Shown: one piece after another, positions 1-9,293 of the stretch
Layout of the letters: each line of letters opens with the position of its first letter
How positions within the stretch are numbered: the first letter of the stretch is position 1
Source: an uncultured Clostridia bacterium
GTDB taxonomy: Bacteria; Bacillota_I; Bacilli_A; RF39; UBA660
Length of the DNA stretch: 64,000 bases
Direction of reading: 5' to 3'
Assembly: GCA_947643225.1 (NCBI GenBank)
Contig: CANRVH010000001.1
Location: 6,868-70,867 of the forward strand
Notes under the pieces: model-generated
Seen by the model: the letters and a program-made list of their open reading frames with translations, nothing else
Told to the model about the DNA's origin: nothing
Database searches by the model: none
Translations under genes and position numbers: made by a program

Positions 1-2
1 AT

Positions 3-287
3 TCCGATTTTAGAGAAGAAGTTAAGAATGTCAATATTAAAACTCCTGATATTTTTAGTTTTAATTTTTATGGAGATGATGCAAAATGGGAGACTATAGT
101 TAATTTTGTTGTAAATCATAGAGATTGTGAAAGTATAGAAATTTTAACCCATTGTGGTTATGTAGATGAGGACACAAAACAAAAAACTTCTTATATACTA
201 CGCGAAGTTGAGCTTATAGAACTAAGAAAATTAAAAAAACATTCATTTTACAAAGAGTATAAATTAAGTAAATTCAGCAATCTATAG
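3..287 (+). CDS. 3' fragment of an unknown CDS; the 5' end lies outside the window. It is probably cargo of the mobile element.
   Basis: Frame 3 is open from the window edge to TAG at 285-287 (…THCGYVDEDTKQKTSYILREVELIELRKLKKHSFYKEYKLSKFSNL*). No start codon falls in the window. It is in the same orientation as the downstream element genes. Confidence 0.3.
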   Translation, partial: SDFREEVKNVNIKTPDIFSFNFYGDDAKWETIVNFVVNHRDCESIEILTHCGYVDEDTKQKTSYILREVELIELRKLKKHSFYKEYKLSKFSNL

Positions 288-319
288 TAGTTTGTTTATA
301 AACGAATGGCGGTGATTCA

Positions 320-1294
320 ATGAAAAATAATATGCTTATATATATATCAAAAGATGGTAATGTAAAAGTAGATGTTAATATACAAAATGAAGATATATGG
401 ATGAGTCAAGATGTAATGGCTAATCTTTATGATACAACGAAACAAAATATTAGTTATCATTTAAATAATATATTTAAGGAAGAAGAACTTAATAAAGATT
501 CAGTTGTCAAAGATTTCTTGACAACTGCTAGTGATGGTAAAAACTATAATGTTTTGCACTATAATTTAGATGCAATTATAGCTGTTGGATATAGAATTAA
601 CTCTAAAAAGGCAACTGAATTTAGAATTTGGGCGACAAAAGTTTTAAAAGAATATATGATTAAAGGTTTTTCCTTAAATGATGAAAGATTAAAAAATAAT
701 GGAGAAAATCCATACTTTGAAGAATTACTTGATAGAATACGTGATATTAGATCTTCAGAAAAAATATTTTGGAGAAAAGTATTAGATATTTATGCAACTT
801 CAATTGATTACAATCCAAAAGATAAACTATCAATAGATTTTTTCAAAACCGTGCAGAATAAAATGCATTATGCTACCCATGGCAACACAGCAGCCGAGGT
901 AATATTTACACGAGTTGATTCTAATAAAGAAAATTTAGGGCTCACTAATTTTAAAGGTGCTTATCCAACAAAAAGTGAAACTGAAATTGCAAAAAACTAT
1001 TTAACAGAAGAAGAACTTAATACTTTAAACAGAATGGTGTCTGCTTATTTAGATGTTGCAGAAATTAATGCACTAGATAGACATCCTATGACAATGAAAG
1101 ATTGGGTTAATGAGTTAGATACATTTTTAAAGATGACAAGAAAAGATATTTTAAAAGATAATGGGAAAATGTCACATGAAGAAGCATTGAAGAAAGCTCA
1201 TGAAGAATATGATAAATATATTCGGACTCACTTAACAACTGCAGAACAAGATTATCTTGATGTATTAAACAAAGAAGTAGAAGAATTAAGGTGA
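320..1294 (+). CDS. RhuM-family (COG3943-like) protein
   Basis: 324 aa. The N-terminus IYISKDGNVKVDVNIQNEDIWMSQDVMANLYDTTKQNISYHLNNIFKEEEL and the GYRINSKKATEFRIWATKVLKEYMIKGF motif match the conserved core of RhuM-family proteins. The RBS is ggcggtg upstream. Confidence 0.8.
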   Translation: MKNNMLIYISKDGNVKVDVNIQNEDIWMSQDVMANLYDTTKQNISYHLNNIFKEEELNKDSVVKDFLTTASDGKNYNVLHYNLDAIIAVGYRINSKKATEFRIWATKVLKEYMIKGFSLNDERLKNNGENPYFEELLDRIRDIRSSEKIFWRKVLDIYATSIDYNPKDKLSIDFFKTVQNKMHYATHGNTAAEVIFTRVDSNKENLGLTNFKGAYPTKSETEIAKNYLTEEELNTLNRMVSAYLDVAEINALDRHPMTMKDWVNELDTFLKMTRKDILKDNGKMSHEEALKKAHEEYDKYIRTHLTTAEQDYLDVLNKEVEELR

Positions 1295-1298
1295 TATT

Positions 1299-1925
1299 AT
1301 GGCTAAATTTTCAAATTTACTAGTAATGCTTGAATTACTAAATACTGGTAGAAAATATAGTGTTAAAGAATTATCATCAGCTTTAGAGGTATCAGAAAGA
1401 GTAATTAGAGAATATAAATTATTTTTAGAAGAAGCTGGAATTTTTGTAGATACAATACGAGGTCCCTATGGTGGTTATATTTTAAGAAAAAATATTACTA
1501 TTCCTCCTCTTTTAATAGATAATAATGATATAAATATAATAAAACAAGTTATTAAAAATACTACTAATAATAAATTAAAGTCTAGTTTGAAAAATATTGA
1601 AAATAAAATAACAAAAAACTTATTAGAATTGGAAAATAACAATACTTCGTTTATAAACACAGAAGAAGAGTTAAAAGTATATAATGCTCTAAATAAAGCA
1701 ATAAAATATAATTATAAAGTAAAAATTAAGTACACTAATTTACAACACGGAGAATCGGTTAGGACTATCTATCCACTGGGAATGTATCTTTTTCAAAACG
1801 AATGGTGGTGTTCATCTTATTGGGAAGAAAAAGACGATATGAGACAATTTCATATTAAAAGAATTTTGGAGTGTAAAATCCTAGATTCAACATTTAATCC
1901 TAAAAAAATAAATATAAAATTTTAG
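1299..1925 (+). CDS. HTH-WYL domain transcriptional regulator (YafY/BrxR-like)
   Basis: The N-terminal HTH (LLNTGRKYSVKELSSALEVSERVIREYKLFLEEAGIFVDTIRGPYGGYIL) is typical of HTH_11/DeoR-N. The C-terminus has a WYL-like segment (VRTIYPLGMYLFQNEWWCSSYWEEKDDMRQFHIKRI). It starts 4 nt after the RhuM stop, so it is probably translationally coupled. Confidence 0.7.
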   Translation: MAKFSNLLVMLELLNTGRKYSVKELSSALEVSERVIREYKLFLEEAGIFVDTIRGPYGGYILRKNITIPPLLIDNNDINIIKQVIKNTTNNKLKSSLKNIENKITKNLLELENNNTSFINTEEELKVYNALNKAIKYNYKVKIKYTNLQHGESVRTIYPLGMYLFQNEWWCSSYWEEKDDMRQFHIKRILECKILDSTFNPKKINIKF

Positions 1926-1979
1926 TACAGACCAAATACCGCCTATATAAGTGGTATTTTATTTATGGGAGGGAGAAAA

Positions 1980-2450
1980 ATGTCAAACGAGAAAGAAATA
2001 AAACATTATATAGAAGTGTTTTATAATTATAACCCAGATAGGGGTACTCAAGAGGATTTTACTTATTCGCATATTGTCACGAATAGAGATCCTTTATTAT
2101 ATATGGAAAGATTTCATGGTGCTAAAGGATTTAGGTTTTTTGATGTTGATGTTTCTGATAATTCATTGAATAAAGAAAAAAGAACAAATATAAGCCCTAT
2201 GTATTATTATGGAAGGTATATGGCAGAACAAGAAATAGAGCAAGTTCATAATGTAATGCCGTTTACAATTAATATTACAAAAATGATTTATTGCTATTGT
2301 GGATGCTTGGTTACTGATTTGAATGAAGGAGATATGACATTAGAAACTTATGCAAACTTAGTAAATAATGAAGAACCTAATTTTGAAAGTAAGCAATTAC
2401 TAAAAATGTCCGTTGCATGTCCTAAAAAATGTGCTAAAATGGTAATATAG
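1980..2450 (+). CDS. hypothetical protein with Cys motifs (CYCGC…CPKKC)
   Basis: ORF in the same operon as the RhuM and WYL genes. ATG at 1980 with a GGGAGGGAG RBS is preferred over the ATG at 1965. No recognisable family. An intrinsic terminator follows it. Confidence 0.5.
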   Translation: MSNEKEIKHYIEVFYNYNPDRGTQEDFTYSHIVTNRDPLLYMERFHGAKGFRFFDVDVSDNSLNKEKRTNISPMYYYGRYMAEQEIEQVHNVMPFTINITKMIYCYCGCLVTDLNEGDMTLETYANLVNNEEPNFESKQLLKMSVACPKKCAKMVI

Positions 2451-2473
2451 GATAATTAGAAGAAGGACTGAGT

Positions 2474-2504
2474 TTGGAGAGATTTTATCTCTCTTTTTTG
2501 CGTT
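2474..2504 (+). terminator. rho-independent terminator after the RhuM-WYL-unknown operon
   Basis: GGAGAGATTTTATCTCTC hairpin followed by TTTTTTG. Confidence 0.7.
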
Positions 2505-2689
2505 CTTTTTTAATTATTCTATCAGAAAGGAGCGTGAAATATGAATGAAATATATTTAAACTGTCGGAGACTATAATGGGTCTTAGGGATTTCTCCCTAA
2601 CAAGAAAAGGGTGTGATAGCACCATGCTTGATAGTTTGAAATTATACTATGTGTCATAAGATGGAGATGATAATCTGAAAAACAAATGG

Positions 2690-3208
2690 ATGTATAGAAA
2701 TGATGTAGAAAGAAATTTAGGTGTATCAAGGAAACAATTAAATCATGCTATTAAAGTAATGGAAAAATATCATTATTTTGAAAATTGGATTTGGTATAAA
2801 TTAGGGCCAACTGATTTAATTGTTTTATTTAATTTAGAATTTGTTGATTGGTTAAAAGATGTATATTTTAATAAAGATGGATTTTTCTTAGACAGAGAAA
2901 TCCATTTTTTAAATGAAAAAATTAAAGATTTAGAAAATGAATTAGGTATTTCTCATTACGAGAAAAATTATCCATATCTAAATGTAAAAGAACTACAAGA
3001 ATACTTTGATAAAAGTAATAGCTCTATTTTAAAGGCAATTGAAAGAATGAATAGAAAAATTGATTGTAAATGCTATAAAGATGGAAAATTATATATTACT
3101 CCTACTGGAGTAAAATGGTTAGATCAAAACTATTATAGAAAATCATACCTTAAAGAGTTGTTAAATTATAAAAAAATACTAAATGAAAAGGAGAATAAAA
3201 ATGACTAA
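2690..3208 (+). CDS. hypothetical protein, possibly DNA-binding (element cargo)
   Basis: 172-aa ORF. The C-terminal segment VKELQEYFDKSNSSILKAIERMNRK looks HTH-like. No confident family assignment. Confidence 0.4.
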   Translation: MYRNDVERNLGVSRKQLNHAIKVMEKYHYFENWIWYKLGPTDLIVLFNLEFVDWLKDVYFNKDGFFLDREIHFLNEKIKDLENELGISHYEKNYPYLNVKELQEYFDKSNSSILKAIERMNRKIDCKCYKDGKLYITPTGVKWLDQNYYRKSYLKELLNYKKILNEKENKND

Positions 3209-3593
3209 AGTTGATAGAAGAAAGAAAATAAATATCATGTTAAATGATGAAGAAAGAAGAATAATTACAGAAAAAGCAGTTGAATATGGATTTGGTCCAC
3301 ATCTTGCTACCTATGTTAGAAGTGCTTGTATTTATGAATCTTTATATAAAGAAGATATAGAAGGTAAAAATGAAATAATTAAAATAATGAGTGATTATAT
3401 TAGTGTTGTTAATAGAATACAATATGAGCAATCACAGTTAACTAAAAAAATTATGTTAAGTGAAGGAGATATACACATGATTAAAGATAATAATACTCTT
3501 CTTCATAATGAAATAAGAAAGCTAATTAAGACAATTGAAAATACATTAACAGTTAAACGTGTAAAAGAAACTAAGCAGAAACTAAATAAATAG
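3201..3593 (+). CDS. MobC-like ribbon-helix-helix protein (mobilisation accessory type)
   Basis: RRKKINIMLNDEERRIITEKAVEYGFGPHLATYVRSACI resembles the MobC/RHH family core (R…I.VRLT.EE…L…A…G.S.S.Y.R). ATG 3201 with an AAAGGAG RBS. It overlaps the upstream ORF. Confidence 0.5.
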   Translation: MTKVDRRKKINIMLNDEERRIITEKAVEYGFGPHLATYVRSACIYESLYKEDIEGKNEIIKIMSDYISVVNRIQYEQSQLTKKIMLSEGDIHMIKDNNTLLHNEIRKLIKTIENTLTVKRVKETKQKLNK

Positions 3594-3659
3594 CTTCTGC
3601 TTTTTCTTAAAGTATTATTTTACAATTTTTCTCATAGTTTTAAATAAAGGAGATGAGTT

Positions 3660-3857
3660 ATGGATTCTAATGATATTATGAGAAGTAAAGAAGTAAAATA
3701 TAAGAATAAAGAAATACTTTTAGAAGTGGCTCTTTCCTTAAATAAAGAGTTATTTGATGAAAATAAAATTTCATATAAAATGTTTAAATATACAGAAGAA
3801 AATATTTTAAAAGAATTAAAAATTTGTAATGTAAGTGGTGCAAATGCTAATACATGA
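3660..3857 (+). CDS. small hypothetical protein immediately upstream of the serine recombinase; could be a recombination directionality factor
   Basis: 65-aa ORF with an AAGGAG RBS. The proposed role rests on position only. Confidence 0.25.
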   Translation: MDSNDIMRSKEVKYKNKEILLEVALSLNKELFDENKISYKMFKYTEENILKELKICNVSGANANT

Positions 3858-3897
3858 AAATAATATGGTATAATGCTATTAGAAAGGAGAAGAAGAG

Positions 3898-5607
3898 TTG
3901 GATTTATATACTGTTCGAAAGCAGTTAAATATGGGAATGCCACTTACAAGTATAAAATTAAGAGTAACAGATTATGCAAGAGTATCAACAGATCATTTAG
4001 AACAAAAAAAATCTCTTCAAAATCAAGTGGAACATTTTGAACAATATATAAAAGAAAATCCAAATTGGACTTATACACCTGGTTATGTAGATGATGGAAT
4101 AACTGGTACAAGTGATGTTAAAAGAGATAACTTTATGAAAATGATTGAAGATGCTAGAGGTGGTAAATTTGATTTAATAGTTACCAAAGAAATTTCTAGA
4201 TTTTCAAGAAATACTCTTGATAGTATTAAATATACAAGAGAACTTTTATCGTATGGAGTGGCTGTTTTATTTGTAAATGATAATATTAATACTGCCCTAC
4301 CTGATTCAGAACTAAGACTTACTATTATGGCTTCCATGGCACAAGATGAAATAAGAAGATTATCAGAACGTGTTAAATTTGGTATGAATCGTGCAATAGA
4401 ACGCGGAGAAATATTAGGGAATGATTTACTTTATGGTTATAAAAAAGATAAAGATACTGGAGTATTAAATATTATAGAGGAAGAAGCAAAAGTTGTTAGA
4501 AGAATTTATGAACTATATACAGTTGAAGAATTAACACTTTCTAAAATAGTTAAAACTTTAAATAGCGAAGGATTAAAAACTTGTCAAGGTAAGAAATGGT
4601 GTATATCTACAATTTCACGGATGATTGAAAATCCTAAATATAAAGGATATTATTGTGCAAGAAAATCTGAAATAGTAGATTATATGACTAAAAAGATAAA
4701 ATACTTTGAAAAAGATGATTGGGTTATTTATGAGGATAAAACAAGAATACCACCAATAATTGATGAGGATTTATGGGATAGAGCTAATAATCGTTTAATA
4801 ACAAGAAAAAAAGCATTTAGCGAACGAAAAGAGGATAAAAGTATTTATAAAAATAGATACTTATATAGTGCTAAAATATTTTGTGCTGAACACAATACAG
4901 TTTTTCATAGAAGAGAATTTAGAAAAAATAAAAAAGATATTACTTGGGTTTGTTCCGAATATTTAAAAAATGGTAAATCTAATTGTGATTCACCAAATAT
5001 TAGAGAATCTGAACTAGATTCAATTTTTAAAGATTTAATTTCTAAACTTCAAATTGATTCTAACCAAGTAGTTGAAACTCTTATGAATTATTACAAACAT
5101 TTAGAAATTGATACTGGTATAGATGAAGAAATAAGTTTGAGAGAAAAAGAAATAAATAATCTTTATGCTAAAAAAGATAAATTATTAGAACTTAGTTTAC
5201 AAGGTAGTTTATCAAATACTGAATTTTATGAAAGGAATAGTTCTTTTAATGAAAAAATTAAAGTTCTTGATAATGAACTTAATAAGTTAAAAAGTCAAAA
5301 AGATGAACTAAAAGGAACAACAGATAAAACTAAAGAACTTGCTGAAATCTTAAAACAAAAAGTTAATTCTAAATCTACAATAGATAAAATAATTAGTTCT
5401 TTACTAGAGCGTATTGTTGTATCTAAAATATGTAATGATAAAAACAATATGGAATTAAATATATTTTTATCTTACAAGGAGAATGACGAAACAAAAAAAC
5501 TACAACCTATTTTAAGAAGTAGTTATGAATTTAAAAGAGGATATGACACACAAGGAACTAAAAGATATAAGGTCAATTATCAAGTGAATTGTTATTTTTG
5601 TCTATAA
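3898..5607 (+). CDS. large serine recombinase (resolvase/invertase catalytic domain, recombinase domain and C-terminal coiled-coil)
   Basis: YARVSTDHLEQ carries the catalytic Ser. The resolvase core reads DDGITGT…FDLIVTKEISRFSRNTLD and a recombinase domain follows. At 569 aa it is typical of integrative-element integrases. TTG at 3898 with a GAAAGGAG RBS, or ATG at 3931, could be the start. A TGGTATAAT extended -10 lies at about 3866. Confidence 0.85.
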   Translation: MDLYTVRKQLNMGMPLTSIKLRVTDYARVSTDHLEQKKSLQNQVEHFEQYIKENPNWTYTPGYVDDGITGTSDVKRDNFMKMIEDARGGKFDLIVTKEISRFSRNTLDSIKYTRELLSYGVAVLFVNDNINTALPDSELRLTIMASMAQDEIRRLSERVKFGMNRAIERGEILGNDLLYGYKKDKDTGVLNIIEEEAKVVRRIYELYTVEELTLSKIVKTLNSEGLKTCQGKKWCISTISRMIENPKYKGYYCARKSEIVDYMTKKIKYFEKDDWVIYEDKTRIPPIIDEDLWDRANNRLITRKKAFSERKEDKSIYKNRYLYSAKIFCAEHNTVFHRREFRKNKKDITWVCSEYLKNGKSNCDSPNIRESELDSIFKDLISKLQIDSNQVVETLMNYYKHLEIDTGIDEEISLREKEINNLYAKKDKLLELSLQGSLSNTEFYERNSSFNEKIKVLDNELNKLKSQKDELKGTTDKTKELAEILKQKVNSKSTIDKIISSLLERIVVSKICNDKNNMELNIFLSYKENDETKKLQPILRSSYEFKRGYDTQGTKRYKVNYQVNCYFCL

Positions 5608-5637
5608 GTTAGACATATAATTTTTCACTTGGCGACT

Positions 5638-6252
5638 TCATTTTCGCGCACTTTGTTCAAATAGACATACAAAGTCACCAGTACCACCAATAAATGCACT
5701 ACTCATAGCAGCAAAACTAACAGAAGTATCAATATTAACATCTTTTTTTGGATTAAGACCAGCTTCACGAATTGCCCATTCAAGAGTCATTTCAGGCATA
5801 CCTCCAGCACGACCACCAATAATTGTTTTCCCCTTTAGATCTTCCAGTTTAAAATTATCAATTTTCTTTCTAGAAACAATAAAATTACCATCTTTTTGAG
5901 TAAGTTGAGCGAATGTTTTTAAATAATCTTTTTCCCCGCTATTATAAATATAAATAGTTGCTTCACTTCCAGAAAAACCAATATCAGCATCTCCTGCTAA
6001 AACAGCAGCAGTAACTTTATCAGCTCCAGGTGTTAAACTCAAATTAATATCAATTCCCTCGTCCCTAAAAAATCCTTTTTCAATAGCAACATATTGAGGT
6101 GCATAAAAAATTGTATGTGCAACCTCAGCTACAGTAATCTTTTTTAATTTTTCCTTTTTATCCTTTTTTTGATCATTAAAATTAAAGAATATAGCACAAA
6201 TAGCTAATAATAAAATAATAATACTAACTACATATAAAATAATTTTTTTCAA
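5638..6252 (-). CDS. NMT1/THI5 (SsuA-like) ABC-transporter substrate-binding protein, apparently truncated at the C-terminus (204 aa versus about 320 aa typical)
   Basis: Signal/anchor MKKIILYVVSIIILLLAICAIFF, then the SsuA-like fold motifs (ITVAEVAHTIFYAPQYVAIEKGFFRDEGIDINL…GDADIGFSG). The ORF stops 30 nt from the recombinase stop. Confidence 0.55.
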   Translation of the reverse strand: MKKIILYVVSIIILLLAICAIFFNFNDQKKDKKEKLKKITVAEVAHTIFYAPQYVAIEKGFFRDEGIDINLSLTPGADKVTAAVLAGDADIGFSGSEATIYIYNSGEKDYLKTFAQLTQKDGNFIVSRKKIDNFKLEDLKGKTIIGGRAGGMPEMTLEWAIREAGLNPKKDVNIDTSVSFAAMSSAFIGGTGDFVCLFEQSARK

Positions 6253-6322
6253 AATAGTCCTCCTTTCTATTTCAAAGTATTATATGCAAAAGAATAAAGA
6301 TGTGATATAAAGGCATTACTAC

Positions 6323-6351
6323 TTGCCAAATAAAAAGAAATATGCTATAAT
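6323..6351 (+). promoter_or_regulatory. sigma-70-type promoter (TTGCCA-N17-TATAAT) for the adhesin gene
   Basis: Read directly: ttgccaaataaaaagaaatatgctataat. Confidence 0.5.
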
Positions 6352-6384
6352 AAGAGACATTAAATTCGATAGGGGGATAATAGA

Positions 6385-7656
6385 ATGAAAAATAATAAAA
6401 TAACAAAAACAATGTTAGTATTACTAATTACAATTACATCATTTTTTACAACAATGAGTAATGCCTTTGCTGAAGTGCCAAATAAAATTAATGTGACATC
6501 AACACCAGCTGTCAAAGGATATATTGGAGAAAAAGTAAACTTTGGAACAAAATCATTAAATGATGGTAGTGTTGCATACTGTTTAGATTACAATAAGTTA
6601 ACTCCAGATCATGCTATTGGAACATTAGCAGGTGAAATGGATGCAGGAATGGCCTATTTAATTGAAAATGGTTATCCACATAAAACCATAACAGGAGATA
6701 AAGCAAAAGATTATTATATTACACAAGTAGCAATTTGGTGGTATTTAGATGAAACAACAGGATCAACAAACTTAACTAATGAATTTAAAACAACAGATAG
6801 TGATCCACAAAATTTAAGACCAACCATAAAAAAGCTAGTAGATAATGCCAAAATAGTTAAAAATAAAGGATACAAAAATCCAAGTCTATCAGCAACAATC
6901 ACAAATAGAAAATTAACGATCTCAACAGATAAAAAATATTATATTTCAGACGAGATAAAAGTAAATTTAACAGATTTAGAAAGTTATACAGTTTCATTAA
7001 CAACCGCACCTGAAGGAAGTTATATAGCAGATGGAAAAGGAAATAAGAAAACAACTTTCCAAAAAGGAGAAACATTTAAAGTTTATGTCAAACAAACTGA
7101 TCAAAAAATTAAAAAAAGTGATATTAAGATAAAAATTAGTGGAACAACAACAATAAATAAAGTATACAAGTATAATCCAGAAAATGATGTAGAGCAAAGA
7201 ATATTAACTGCAGTTCTTTATCCAACAACAATAAAAAAAGAACAAGATCTATCTTTGACAATCTCACCATCAAAAGTAACAATTAATAAAATTGATGCAG
7301 AAACAAAAAAAGCCTTAGCAGGGGCAGTTCTTGTAGTAAAAGACAAAGCTGGAAATATTGTTGCAGAATTTACAACAAGTGAAGAATCTTATATTATTGA
7401 AGACTTAAGTAATGGAGAATACGAAGTATCAGAAAAAAGTGCTCCCGAAGGATATATCTTAAGCGAAAAAACATATCAATTTACGATTGATGATGATAAC
7501 AGAAATCACACAGTCATATTTGAAAATTATAAAGAAATATATGTTCCAGATACAAACTCTAATAGCACAATAATGTATATACTAGGTACAATCATAATGG
7601 TATCAGGTATCTCATTTGTAATCTACAATGCTAAGAAAAAACAAATTAATAAATAA
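6385..7656 (+). CDS. thioester-domain (TED) surface adhesin with a CnaB/SpaA-type domain and a non-canonical sortase sorting signal
   Basis: Signal peptide present. The TED Cys motif AYCLDYNK and Gln motif YITQVAIWWY are both there. A CnaB-type domain reads AGAVLVVKDKAGN…EYEVSEKSAPEGY. The C-terminus is IYVPDTNSNST followed by a hydrophobic helix and a KKKQ tail. Confidence 0.75.
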   Translation: MKNNKITKTMLVLLITITSFFTTMSNAFAEVPNKINVTSTPAVKGYIGEKVNFGTKSLNDGSVAYCLDYNKLTPDHAIGTLAGEMDAGMAYLIENGYPHKTITGDKAKDYYITQVAIWWYLDETTGSTNLTNEFKTTDSDPQNLRPTIKKLVDNAKIVKNKGYKNPSLSATITNRKLTISTDKKYYISDEIKVNLTDLESYTVSLTTAPEGSYIADGKGNKKTTFQKGETFKVYVKQTDQKIKKSDIKIKISGTTTINKVYKYNPENDVEQRILTAVLYPTTIKKEQDLSLTISPSKVTINKIDAETKKALAGAVLVVKDKAGNIVAEFTTSEESYIIEDLSNGEYEVSEKSAPEGYILSEKTYQFTIDDDNRNHTVIFENYKEIYVPDTNSNSTIMYILGTIIMVSGISFVIYNAKKKQINK

Positions 7657-8299
7657 AAAGAAACATGAAGTAAGTTCTAATACGATTGCCATGATATCAA
7701 GTATTGTCATTTTATTAGGACTCTTCATTTTTTCTTATAATTATACTAAATCTAAAAAAATATTAGCCTATGAACAAATGAATAACATCTTTTATGAAGA
7801 TCATTCAAAGACAGAAAAGAAAGAAAATAAAAAACAACAAAAAGAAGAAAAAATACAAGAACAAGAGGAGAAAAAGGAAATCATCACAAATGATTACATA
7901 GGCTATTTAGAGATACCAAAAATAAAGTTAAAAAAAGGGTTTGTTAGTAAAAAATCAAGTGATAATGATGTGGAAAAAAATATCTTTATAGTAGAACAAT
8001 CTACCTATCCTGATAAAGAAAAAGGTAACTTCATTATTGCCGCACATTCAGGAACTGGCTGGAAAGCTTTCTTTAATGATTTATATCAATTAGAACAAGG
8101 TAATGAGATTTATGTTACTTATAAAAATAAAAAATATACCTATAAAATAGCAGATATTTATAAGCAGAAAAAAACAGGAACTATCGCTATATATAGAGAT
8201 TATAATAAAACAACATTAACATTAGTAACCTGCACAAACAATGATGATACATCACAGACAGTTTATATTGCTTATTTAGAAAAAATAGAAAATTTATAG
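7628..8299 (+). CDS. class B-type sortase
   Basis: N-terminal TM helix, the His motif IIAAHSG and the catalytic TLVTCT motif. It overlaps the end of the adhesin gene. An ATG at 7691 is an alternative start. Confidence 0.8.
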   Translation: MLRKNKLINKKKHEVSSNTIAMISSIVILLGLFIFSYNYTKSKKILAYEQMNNIFYEDHSKTEKKENKKQQKEEKIQEQEEKKEIITNDYIGYLEIPKIKLKKGFVSKKSSDNDVEKNIFIVEQSTYPDKEKGNFIIAAHSGTGWKAFFNDLYQLEQGNEIYVTYKNKKYTYKIADIYKQKKTGTIAIYRDYNKTTLTLVTCTNNDDTSQTVYIAYLEKIENL

Positions 8300-8315
8300 A
8301 AGGGGGGAATAAAAA

Positions 8316-9293
8316 ATGATGAATGAATTATCTCTAATAGAAAAATTTAAAGTTGTCTTTGATATTACCAAATCAAATATCGTTTATCCAATTATTATAA
8401 TTTTTTTACTAATTATCAGCTTTCTATTTATAACAACAAATAAAAATAATGCCAAAGAAAGTAAAAAAGTTTATGGAAGCCTATATGCTATTTTAATGAT
8501 AATAATTTTAATTAAATATGCGACTTCATTAAAAACAATGATAGACTATATGATGAATCATTTATTTATTGTTTTTTACTTTCCCAATATTGCCGTTTAT
8601 TTAACAGCAATCCTCATCACAAATATCATCATGTGGATCAGTATGTTTAAATCATCTACTAAAACTATAATAAAAATAATCAATGCAACAATATTTTCTA
8701 TAATTCATTACATCTTACTTTTAATCCTTGGAATCATTACAACAAAAAAGATAGACGTCTTTAATCAAAAAGCACTATATGCTAATCACGATATTCATGC
8801 TTTAATTGAATTAAGCAGTAATATTTTTATAATATGGATGATCTTTCTTATCCTTTACAAAATAATTTATACTTATCTTGAAAGCAAAAAAGGACAAAAA
8901 ATCTATGATAACCAATTACTTGCAATAGAACAAGTCCAAAAAGTAGAAAAAGAAGGAACTGTAACAATTAATCTTCCAAAAAACATTAAAGAAGTAAGAG
9001 CACCATATCTAGTAAAAAGAGAAATGTCTAAAACAAGAATTGTTTATCAATTACCAAAACAAATGGAAAATACAGCTATTTATGAACAAATGTTGACTTT
9101 AGATGATTATAAATTATTAGTTTCCCTATTAAAAGAAGAAAAAGAAAAAGGGGTAAAAACAATCTTAAATAATCAGAAACACACGATAAACAAAGAAAAA
9201 ACAGAAGAAGAAAGGTTGACCCAAAAAAACAAACAGTCCCAACCAGAAAGTGGACTATCAGAATTGATGAGATTATATAAAAGTACAAGCTAA
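8316..9293 (+). CDS. polytopic membrane protein, function unknown
   Basis: Several hydrophobic helices and a charged C-terminal tail. A G6 run lies in the RBS (aggggggaat). Confidence 0.5.
   Translation: MMNELSLIEKFKVVFDITKSNIVYPIIIIFLLIISFLFITTNKNNAKESKKVYGSLYAILMIIILIKYATSLKTMIDYMMNHLFIVFYFPNIAVYLTAILITNIIMWISMFKSSTKTIIKIINATIFSIIHYILLLILGIITTKKIDVFNQKALYANHDIHALIELSSNIFIIWMIFLILYKIIYTYLESKKGQKIYDNQLLAIEQVQKVEKEGTVTINLPKNIKEVRAPYLVKREMSKTRIVYQLPKQMENTAIYEQMLTLDDYKLLVSLLKEEKEKGVKTILNNQKHTINKEKTEEERLTQKNKQSQPESGLSELMRLYKSTS

Follow-up and report, generated by a model that had tools for sequence, protein, structure and literature searches.

What makes a unit of the genes that a mobile element carries? 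The question is raised by a stretch of 64,000 nucleotides (nt) from an uncultured Clostridia bacterium (contig CANRVH010000001.1; the whole stretch is called the window below), in which three co-directional genes near the left edge lie on a serine-recombinase element. The genes encode a RhuM-family protein, a regulator of 208 amino acids (aa) with helix-turn-helix (HTH) and WYL domains, termed WYL-208, and an orphan protein of 156 aa, termed g3. A sequence-only reading of the window had proposed that the three genes form one operon, possibly an anti-phage or abortive-infection module. The three open reading frames (ORFs), the gaps of 4 nt between RhuM and WYL and of 54 nt between WYL and g3, and the terminator that closes the unit are all present as that reading described them. 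Comparison of related loci favors a different organization, to which a probability of about 0.6 is assigned: the element would carry two modules, RhuM on the one hand and a WYL switch with swappable cargo on the other.

RhuM and the WYL-g3 pair

Genomic context was recovered for eight lineages whose g3 homologue is at least 36% identical. Here and below, L-numbers denote loci on metagenomic contigs, and all of this context comes from uncultured, low-GC Bacilli. The WYL gene lies directly upstream of g3 in all eight lineages, encodes 208 aa, and is separated from g3 by 51-58 nt. An intact RhuM gene is found directly upstream of the pair in two of the eight, namely the clade of the window and L018 and the lineage of L005. 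Two others retain a remnant: in L006-L008, RhuM is cut down to its last 86 codons, and in L003/L009 the upstream copy carries an internal deletion and stop codons and a second, downstream copy is split into pieces of 231 and 87 aa. RhuM is absent from L011, L012, L013 and L023, which represent the other four lineages. One sub-clade thus had RhuM ancestrally, and the gene has since decayed at least twice, with WYL and g3 remaining intact. Conservation of the three genes as a unit, on which the sequence-only reading depended, therefore breaks down, and what recurs is the WYL-g3 pair.

These losses bear directly on the view that RhuM, WYL-208 and g3 constitute a single defence or abortive-infection system, in which the WYL protein would act as repressor and RhuM and g3 would act jointly. 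An intact triad is seen not only in the window but also in L018-L021 and L005, the remnants in L003 and L006 show that it was ancestral to the sub-clade, and the coding end of RhuM overlaps the conserved leader of the WYL gene; the co-directional genes, the 4-nt gap and the single terminator also fit. However, RhuM has been pseudogenised or truncated twice with WYL-g3 left intact, half of the g3 lineages do without it, WYL-208 pairs with many other genes where no RhuM is found, and a relative of RhuM works alone. A joint three-gene system is judged to be highly improbable.

RhuM is instead a candidate for a stand-alone, single-gene defence system or toxin. The window protein matches the Pfam family PF13310 (Virulence_RhuM) over residues 61-302 with an E value of 9.5e-108 and 359.7 bits, against a cutoff of 33.7, and matches the PADLOC model PDC-S05 over its full length (residues 2-318, E 4.6e-147); a weak match to Bro-N is found at its N-terminus. 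It is 96% identical to the copy in L018 and 87% identical to that in L005. Both the family assignment and the link to defence drawn by the sequence-only reading were borne out, in that PDC-S05 is a PADLOC defence candidate. One member of PDC-S05, as a single gene, protected E. coli against the phages T7, T5 and T4, with about 1000-fold protection against T7 and T5 (bioRxiv 10.1101/2024.09.26.614923), and RhuM had been predicted in 2013 to be a toxin domain in restriction-modification and defence neighbourhoods (PMC3710099). The window copy is a full-length, very strong match to PDC-S05 and Virulence_RhuM, and no feature sets it apart from these families, for which no solved structure was found under Virulence_RhuM. 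PDC-S05 is a single-gene system, and the window RhuM is tied to WYL-g3 by position only.

WYL-208, its partners and the box between them

The case for swappable cargo comes from the wider WYL-208 subfamily. In 20-odd further WYL-208 loci, the partner gene lies about 55-60 nt downstream of the regulator, and the partners, including g3, fall into eight BLAST families (Table 1). By hhalign, only the partner in L032 is linked to g3, and that weakly (E 1e-4); no remote homology was detected between g3 and the families of the 185-aa or 235-aa partners. On sequence comparison, then, WYL-208 fronts at least seven unrelated orphan families. The partners have no significant match in Pfam, PADLOC or NCBIfam, except that the 338-aa partner gives a weak SIS-like signal. 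A PADLOC scan of g3 and eight other partners gave best E values of 0.011 and 0.036, which are not significant, and the similarity of the 334-339-aa partner to double-SIS proteins (GlmD, E 2.4e-4; archaeal PGI/PMI, E 3.5e-4) lies far below the cutoffs. The same association can be seen in two settings for one regulator: an identical WYL-208 protein (P0131, present on 123 contigs) with a 185-aa partner has two different right flanks, in L027 (4208-6694) and in L029 (1-2492), and the homology between these loci, at 97.9% nucleotide identity, stops about 450 nt past the partner gene.

The regulator itself is nearly constant. The subfamily comprises 371 homologous clusters (E <= 1e-5); of the 120 listed, 109 have a length of exactly 208 aa. 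Across the g3-linked loci, the identity of the WYL protein is 71-99%, where that of g3 is only 42-91%. The ratio of non-synonymous to synonymous substitution (dN/dS, by the Nei-Gojobori method) is 0.06-0.23 for the WYL gene, and 0.06-0.15 in pairs without L012. The protein contains an HTH_11 domain at residues 9-61 (29.4 bits, cutoff 25) and a WYL domain, PF13280, at residues 127-193 (43.6 bits, cutoff 21.8), so that its layout is a winged HTH (wHTH) at 1-65, a linker at 66-125 and the WYL domain at 127-193, with the protein ending 15 residues later. Against the generic 'WYL' profile of PADLOC, PDLC01457, residues 6-203 align to positions 5-202 of 229 (E 8.5e-29). Among sequences in the PDB, WYL-208 matches only the WYL domains of PafBC (6sj9) and BrxR (7qfz), and BrxR aligns over its residues 118-197 of 295 only. 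WYL-208 has no WCX domain, a segment of about 100 aa, and the residues EWWCS are aligned to the RWHVR motif of BrxR. In the strict sense, then, the regulator is not BrxR/CapW-like: the wHTH and WYL domains, their order and their lengths agree, and WCX and RWHVR are missing.

Between the regulator and its partner lies a second terminator-like palindrome (1934-1959), which the sequence-only reading had overlooked. It is part of a conserved box that in every type-A locus begins 5-8 nt past the WYL stop codon, whatever gene comes next. The order is always box, T-rich tail and ribosome-binding site (RBS) of the partner. The spacing of ATACC-N12-GGTAT is invariant and the tail is kept in all type-A loci with variable sequence. 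Pairs of loci differ in the box by 0.09 per site on average, compared with a synonymous pS of 0.33-0.63 in the WYL gene (0.05 for one near-identical pair), the two figures coming from partly overlapping sets of loci, and the variation in the box is limited to its central 7 nt. A terminator scan of 1934-1959 gives nine pairs, three of them GC, and the ATACC-N12-GGTAT motif occurs once in the window. For comparison, the scan of the terminator that ends the unit finds a hairpin at 2476-2494 followed by a T-run, and the enclosing 70 nt (2451-2520) fold with z = -3.77. The GC content of the window is 26.6%, and no known RNA family was found in its positions 1-6500.

We read the box as a terminator or attenuator that would hold expression of the partner low, and that may also be a protein-binding site. 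The latter reading has a precedent, because BrxR binds a second inverted repeat ahead of the downstream brxA promoter (PMC9122601). Two further ideas on this region found no support. No autoregulatory copy of the palindrome was found upstream of the WYL genes. Nor did the 54-nt gap yield a promoter for g3: there is no conserved -10 or -35 element, the hexamers of the loop vary, and key positions are missing.

In type-B loci, the recognition helix of the WYL protein reads SPRMIRIYK or SERMIRKYK, not SERVIREYK, and the boxes differ as well. The type-B hairpins sequester the Shine-Dalgarno (SD) sequence of the partner (probability unpaired 0-0.2; z -4.4 to -5.7). In L034 (4625-4692), L037, L048, L039-L042 and L044, an anti-SD-like CCUC(U) pairs with the GGAGG of the partner, and in some type-B loci a GUGAC box additionally pairs with the region of the start codon. 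On these predicted pairings, a type-B hairpin would damp the partner gene translationally as well as transcriptionally.

Promoters with an extended -10 element are found upstream of WYL in most stand-alone cassettes, and several others have none. In the window, the coding sequence of RhuM occupies the region of the WYL promoter, and the transcript of RhuM probably extends through the cassette.

Taken together under the two-module reading, the constant front end of the cassette would consist of WYL-208, as a dimeric, ligand-sensing protein, and the palindromic, terminator-like box, and the variable back end would be one gene downstream of it, from any of at least seven unrelated orphan families, here g3. 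Transcription of the unit would be under the control of WYL-208. Basal expression of the partner would be held low by the hairpin and U-tract, with sequestration of the SD sequence by the hairpin taking that role in other subtypes, and a signal sensed by the WYL domain would raise transcription of, or read-through into, the partner gene. The signal is probably not sensed in the manner of CapW, by binding single-stranded DNA (ssDNA), because WCX and the two ssDNA-contacting arginines are missing. The window cassette would have lost its own promoter in favor of the transcript from RhuM.

A bolder extension of this model is unlikely. WYL-208 and the palindrome would be a portable front end, sensor and switch in one, that has picked up unrelated single-gene effectors time and again, g3 among them, so that the cassettes would make up an unrecognised, minimal, two-gene conflict family in uncultured gut Bacilli. 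The WCX-less WYL domain, which is Sm-like, might in that case act on the hairpin itself and control termination or read-through, not only a promoter operator.

The settings in which the cassettes are found can also be read in another, less probable way. WYL-208 might be a lineage-wide housekeeping regulator of stress, DNA damage or metabolism, similar to DriD, PafBC and SiwR or of the YafY type, with g3 as a local, non-defence target that hitch-hikes on the element. Cassettes do occupy ordinary chromosomal sites, some of them apparently syntenic, and recG and/or a NUDIX gene is close upstream in the three lineages L034, L043 and L052-56. The regulator is extremely conserved and uniform in length, the 338-aa partner is weakly SIS-like, and distant g3 homologues lie beside ribosomal-protein genes. 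No copies were found in phages or viral contigs: the phage and plasmid homologues of WYL-208 are matches of the YafY type with only 22-28% identity, and viral contigs contained no relatives of WYL-208, g3 or two other partners tested. Such a regulon would be unusual, however, in the turnover of at least seven orphan partner families behind one regulator, in the differing right flanks of the same WYL protein, and in a target, g3, whose evolution is 3-5 times faster than that of the regulator. Several cassettes are also on or near mobile or conflict genes. Besides that on the window element, the cassette in L023 lies among genes for a recombinase, an ADP-ribosyl toxin, a GT4-conflict protein and Panacea proteins, that in L027 is beside IS66 and an ADP-ribosyl toxin gene, and that in L037 is beside a DUF3644/restriction endonuclease gene. 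Among the chromosomal neighbours, recG is upstream of the cassette in L034 and L053, and a GH3 gene adjoins it in L034 and L013.

A constant component with variable partners is also reminiscent of promiscuous antitoxins, and WYL-g3 might be an addiction pair akin to type II toxin-antitoxin systems that stabilises the element, with WYL-208 as DNA-binding antitoxin and g3 as toxin. Two genes with the regulator first, on a mobile element, would suit such a pair, and a terminator between them would ensure that more antitoxin than toxin is made. Of the explanations considered, this is taken to be the least probable. Type II pairs are typically coupled tightly, and here a hairpin sits in a gap of 51-58 nt; the HTH and WYL domains hardly change from partner to partner, which argues against partner-specific protein contacts; g3 contains neither a toxin-like domain nor invariant catalytic residues, and many cassettes reside at stable chromosomal sites.

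Several observations nevertheless weigh against the two-module reading itself. One partner is SIS-like, a resemblance to sugar-phosphate proteins that fits a non-defence regulon, and most cassettes lie among housekeeping genes such as recG/GH3/nrnA, NUDIX/MBL/HD/IMPase, lysS/rpsL and rplS/lepB/tRNA-Met/map. Distant relatives of g3 are found without a WYL gene, either beside rpsU or within longer proteins, of which they make up the N-terminal domain, and neither WYL-208 nor g3 matches a defence-specific PADLOC model. A search for covariation in the palindrome revealed no double-sided compensatory changes, the hairpin of the window is weak (z -0.33, compared with -3.4 for the copy in L013), and the hairpin is degraded in L045, so that the roles of operator, terminator or both are inseparable. 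Finally, no matching operator was found upstream of the WYL genes, where the half-site occurs at 2.8/kb against a background of 2.1/kb. The suggestion that the locus is a defence module thus stands in part: RhuM is a PADLOC candidate, but g3 has no PADLOC match and most relatives of the WYL cassette are situated among housekeeping genes. A role in defence for WYL-g3 is a plausible hypothesis.

The g3 protein and the element that carries it

The gene for g3 is rare: a set of 5.8 billion proteins yielded nine clusters (at 90% identity), and a set of 1.84 billion representatives yielded 31. Its dN/dS (Nei-Gojobori) is 0.28-0.54 at unsaturated dS; it therefore encodes a real, selected protein, evolving 3-5 times faster than the WYL regulator, and the prediction that the short ORF would prove to be conserved as a protein is upheld. 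The remark that it belongs to no recognisable family was likewise confirmed for Pfam, NCBIfam, PHROGs and PADLOC. As for its start, an ATG at 1965 would give a protein of 161 aa. The start at 1980 is favored because it is preceded by the RBS GGGAGGGAG and because all homologues begin at the equivalent Met; the GGAG-type RBSs of homologous loci have the same spacing to the start codon.

An AlphaFold2 (AF2) model of g3, made from an alignment of 32 sequences, has a predicted local distance difference test score (pLDDT) of 86 and a predicted template modelling score (pTM) of 0.75. An alpha+beta domain is modelled with confidence over residues 1-130; from residue 133 on, pLDDT is below 50 and the tail is disordered. 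No structural neighbour of the model was found in the PDB or BFVD. Most members have an acidic core and a short basic tail. F51, D55 and G78 are invariant in the family, and Y10, P38, L39, N70, S72, Y76, I103, C105, G108, T120 and E123 are nearly so; no catalytic set of the Cys-His type stands out among the conserved residues. Judged by this model, g3 is a new protein family without a detectable fold relative. It is a cytoplasmic protein with no obvious catalytic signature, and it is regarded here as an effector or binding protein that stress or infection induces. That its role is most likely one in conflict is the weakest step of the argument.

The cysteine motif CYCGC...CPKKC, which had been singled out in the sequence-only reading, does not define the family. 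CYCGC is invariant in the close clade only, and CPKKC is absent from most homologues. Three further assignments were rejected. A metal-binding Cys cluster is not the core of g3, as C105 alone reaches about 90% conservation and CPKKC falls within the disordered, variable tail. Membership in the Pfam family PF13798 (PCYCGC) is not supported, because the match spans just 27 residues and scores 14.5 bits, below the cutoff of 25. Although g3 has the C-x-C-G-C string of that family, the string is not conserved across the g3 family, of which none of 32 members matches PF13798 at E <= 0.01. A function as recombination directionality factor was discarded because WYL-g3 is found far from any recombinase. 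No homologues of g3 were found in phages or plasmids.

Two loci contain the g3 domain in other settings. In L016 (3522-3965), a 147-aa g3-domain gene lies between rpsU and yqeY with no WYL gene, and in L010 (4908-6780) there are tandem paralogues of 289 and 282 aa, each with the g3 domain and a C-terminal extension, again with no WYL gene.

The carrier is what the sequence-only reading had taken it to be, a serine-recombinase element: the three genes are cargo of an element of about 6.3 kb inserted into an NMT1 gene, with integrase domains at one end of the element and the halves of the split target gene on its flanks. The recombinase is a match to the integrase family phrog_95 (E 4e-113), and it is Ccr-like only below the NCBIfam cutoffs. 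The whole element is visible in near-identical copies on the metagenomic contigs L018-L022, where the order is variable cargo, RhuM, WYL, g3, ORFs of 172/177, 130/136 and 65 aa, and recombinase. The order of the backbone ORFs ahead of the recombinase, including that of 65 aa, is the same in the window, and the 172-aa and 136-aa products each share about 91% identity with the corresponding product of L018. The 136-aa ORF has a weak match to NikA-like ribbon-helix-helix proteins (E 6e-4, under the cutoff), and the three backbone ORFs may encode accessory proteins for excision or mobilisation. The slot upstream of RhuM differs between copies of the element. It holds an ORF without a Pfam match in the window, a 284-aa alpha/beta hydrolase gene in L018 (7468-8322), and in L005 (5663-6247) a gene whose 194-aa product is transglutaminase-like and contains a GYGHCW motif.

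The right junction of the element is at about 5650-5656, and the left end is beyond the window. The NMT1 Pfam profile match in the window ends at position 145 of 216. In L018, the missing frame, encoding a C-terminal 140 aa, is found about 6.3 kb away, beside genes for an ABC transporter ATPase and permease. The two halves (6947-7369 and 13665-14285 of L018) can be rejoined to read ...FVCLFE/PNALDVEKQ... across the insertion point, and GAAC(A/C)AA is common to both attachment (att) junctions. The insertion knocks out the gene that opens a three-gene transporter operon. Immediately to the right of the split NMT1 gene (6385-9293) are genes for a pilin-like surface protein, the L018 orthologue of which carries TED and SpaA domains, a sortase, and a 325-aa ORF, an ordinary chromosomal context.

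The locus L003/L009 (5667-13055), from the metagenome-assembled genome MGBC143456 of an uncultured member of the Bacilli, is a decaying composite island. It contains RhuM twice, both copies broken, a 541-aa gene split into 238 and 198 aa, and a 196-aa transglutaminase-like gene duplicated as a 138-aa fragment, with WYL and g3 intact. Relative to the NMT1 gene, its recombinase is at the opposite end from the arrangement in the window.

Table 1. Features of the element in the window and partner genes of WYL-208 at other loci.
Feature	Position	Strand	Remarks
Cargo ORF, 3' end	3-287	+	continues beyond the left edge of the window; frame 3 open to stop at 285-287
RhuM ORF	320-1294	+	324 aa
WYL-208 ORF	1299-1925	+	208 aa
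Conserved box and T-rich tail	1930-1966 (box 1930-1958)	+	29-nt box GACCAAATACCGCCTATATAAGTGGTATT with 22-bp palindrome (ATACC-N12-GGTAT), then T-rich tail
SD sequence of g3	1967-1975	+	GGGAGGGAG, read off the sequence
g3 ORF	1980-2450	+	156 aa; acidic globular core, about residues 1-130, and short basic disordered tail
Intrinsic terminator of RhuM-WYL-g3 unit	2476-2500	+	8-bp stem GGAGAGAT/ATCTCTCT, then T6
Backbone ORF	2690-3208	+	172 aa
Backbone ORF	3183-3593	+	136 aa
Backbone ORF	3660-3857	+	65 aa
Large serine recombinase, element integrase	3898-5607	+	Resolvase, Recombinase and Zn_ribbon_recom domains
NMT1-type ABC substrate-binding-protein gene	5638-6252	-	N-terminal 204 aa, cut by element; profile match
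Partner, 185-205 aa	L027, L033
Partner, 245 aa	L035
Partner, 334-339 aa	L034 4687-5703, L038 715-1719, L052 6689-7708
Partner, 129-242 aa	L039-L044
Partner, 253 aa	L043
Partner, 172 aa	L032
Partner, 252 aa	L046		without hairpin

Relation to known WYL systems

WYL regulators are gatekeepers of large defence systems, and the sensing of ssDNA through WYL and WCX has been worked out only recently. If the partners are effectors, WYL-208 provides a guilt-by-association handle for small immune or stress proteins in uncultured gut bacteria, and also a test case for signal sensing by a minimal WYL switch. If they are not, the juxtaposition of WYL and RhuM genes on a mobile element is by itself no proof of a defence operon, and even then a new protein family is documented in g3, with a confident model that has no neighbour in the libraries searched. 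In either case, it is the WCX-less WYL-208, the palindrome and the set of orphan partners that are worth pursuing, and not the triad.

The closest characterized relatives are BrxR and CapW, wHTH-WYL-WCX repressors that are encoded ahead of BREX, CBASS and further defence systems. CapW is a ligand-gated repressor composed of a wHTH at 1-70, a linker at 71-136, a WYL domain at 137-193 and WCX at 193-297; its RWHVR motif holds two ssDNA-contacting arginines, and the crevice for ssDNA is partly formed by WCX (PMC11662680). WYL-208 shares the order and lengths of the domains, with a wHTH, a helical linker of about 60 aa and a WYL domain, and it shares the arrangement of regulator first and variable cargo downstream, with a palindrome between them as with R-BOX2 of BrxR. 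It differs in its length of 208 aa, compared with about 295, in the absence of WCX and in the loss of both arginines. Because the crevice of CapW is built in part by WCX, and WYL-208 has neither WCX nor the arginines, its ligand need not be ssDNA. The cargo of WYL-208 is a single orphan gene and not a recognised defence system, and its palindrome is followed by a U-tract and is terminator-like, with no operator found at its own promoter.

DriD, PafBC and SiwR, which activate transcription in DNA-damage responses, are described as HTH and WYL regulators of adjacent, lineage-specific genes under genotoxic stress. They also carry WCX or, in PafBC, a duplication, and they have defined regulons, in contrast to the single, swappable neighbour of WYL-208. 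The best profile match over the whole length of WYL-208 is the CRISPR-associated WYL family of PADLOC and CCTyper (PDLC01457). Since the match spans positions 5-202 of 229, that family likewise consists of short HTH-WYL proteins without WCX. No cas genes or CRISPR arrays were found next to any cassette examined.

Panacea-domain antitoxins offer another parallel, as one conserved component occurs with many unrelated partners. WYL-208 differs from them in being a transcription factor that comes with a conserved cis element, and there is no sign that it neutralises its partner by protein contact. In short, the WYL-208 cassette is a new form of a known theme, a WYL regulator placed ahead of variable cargo.

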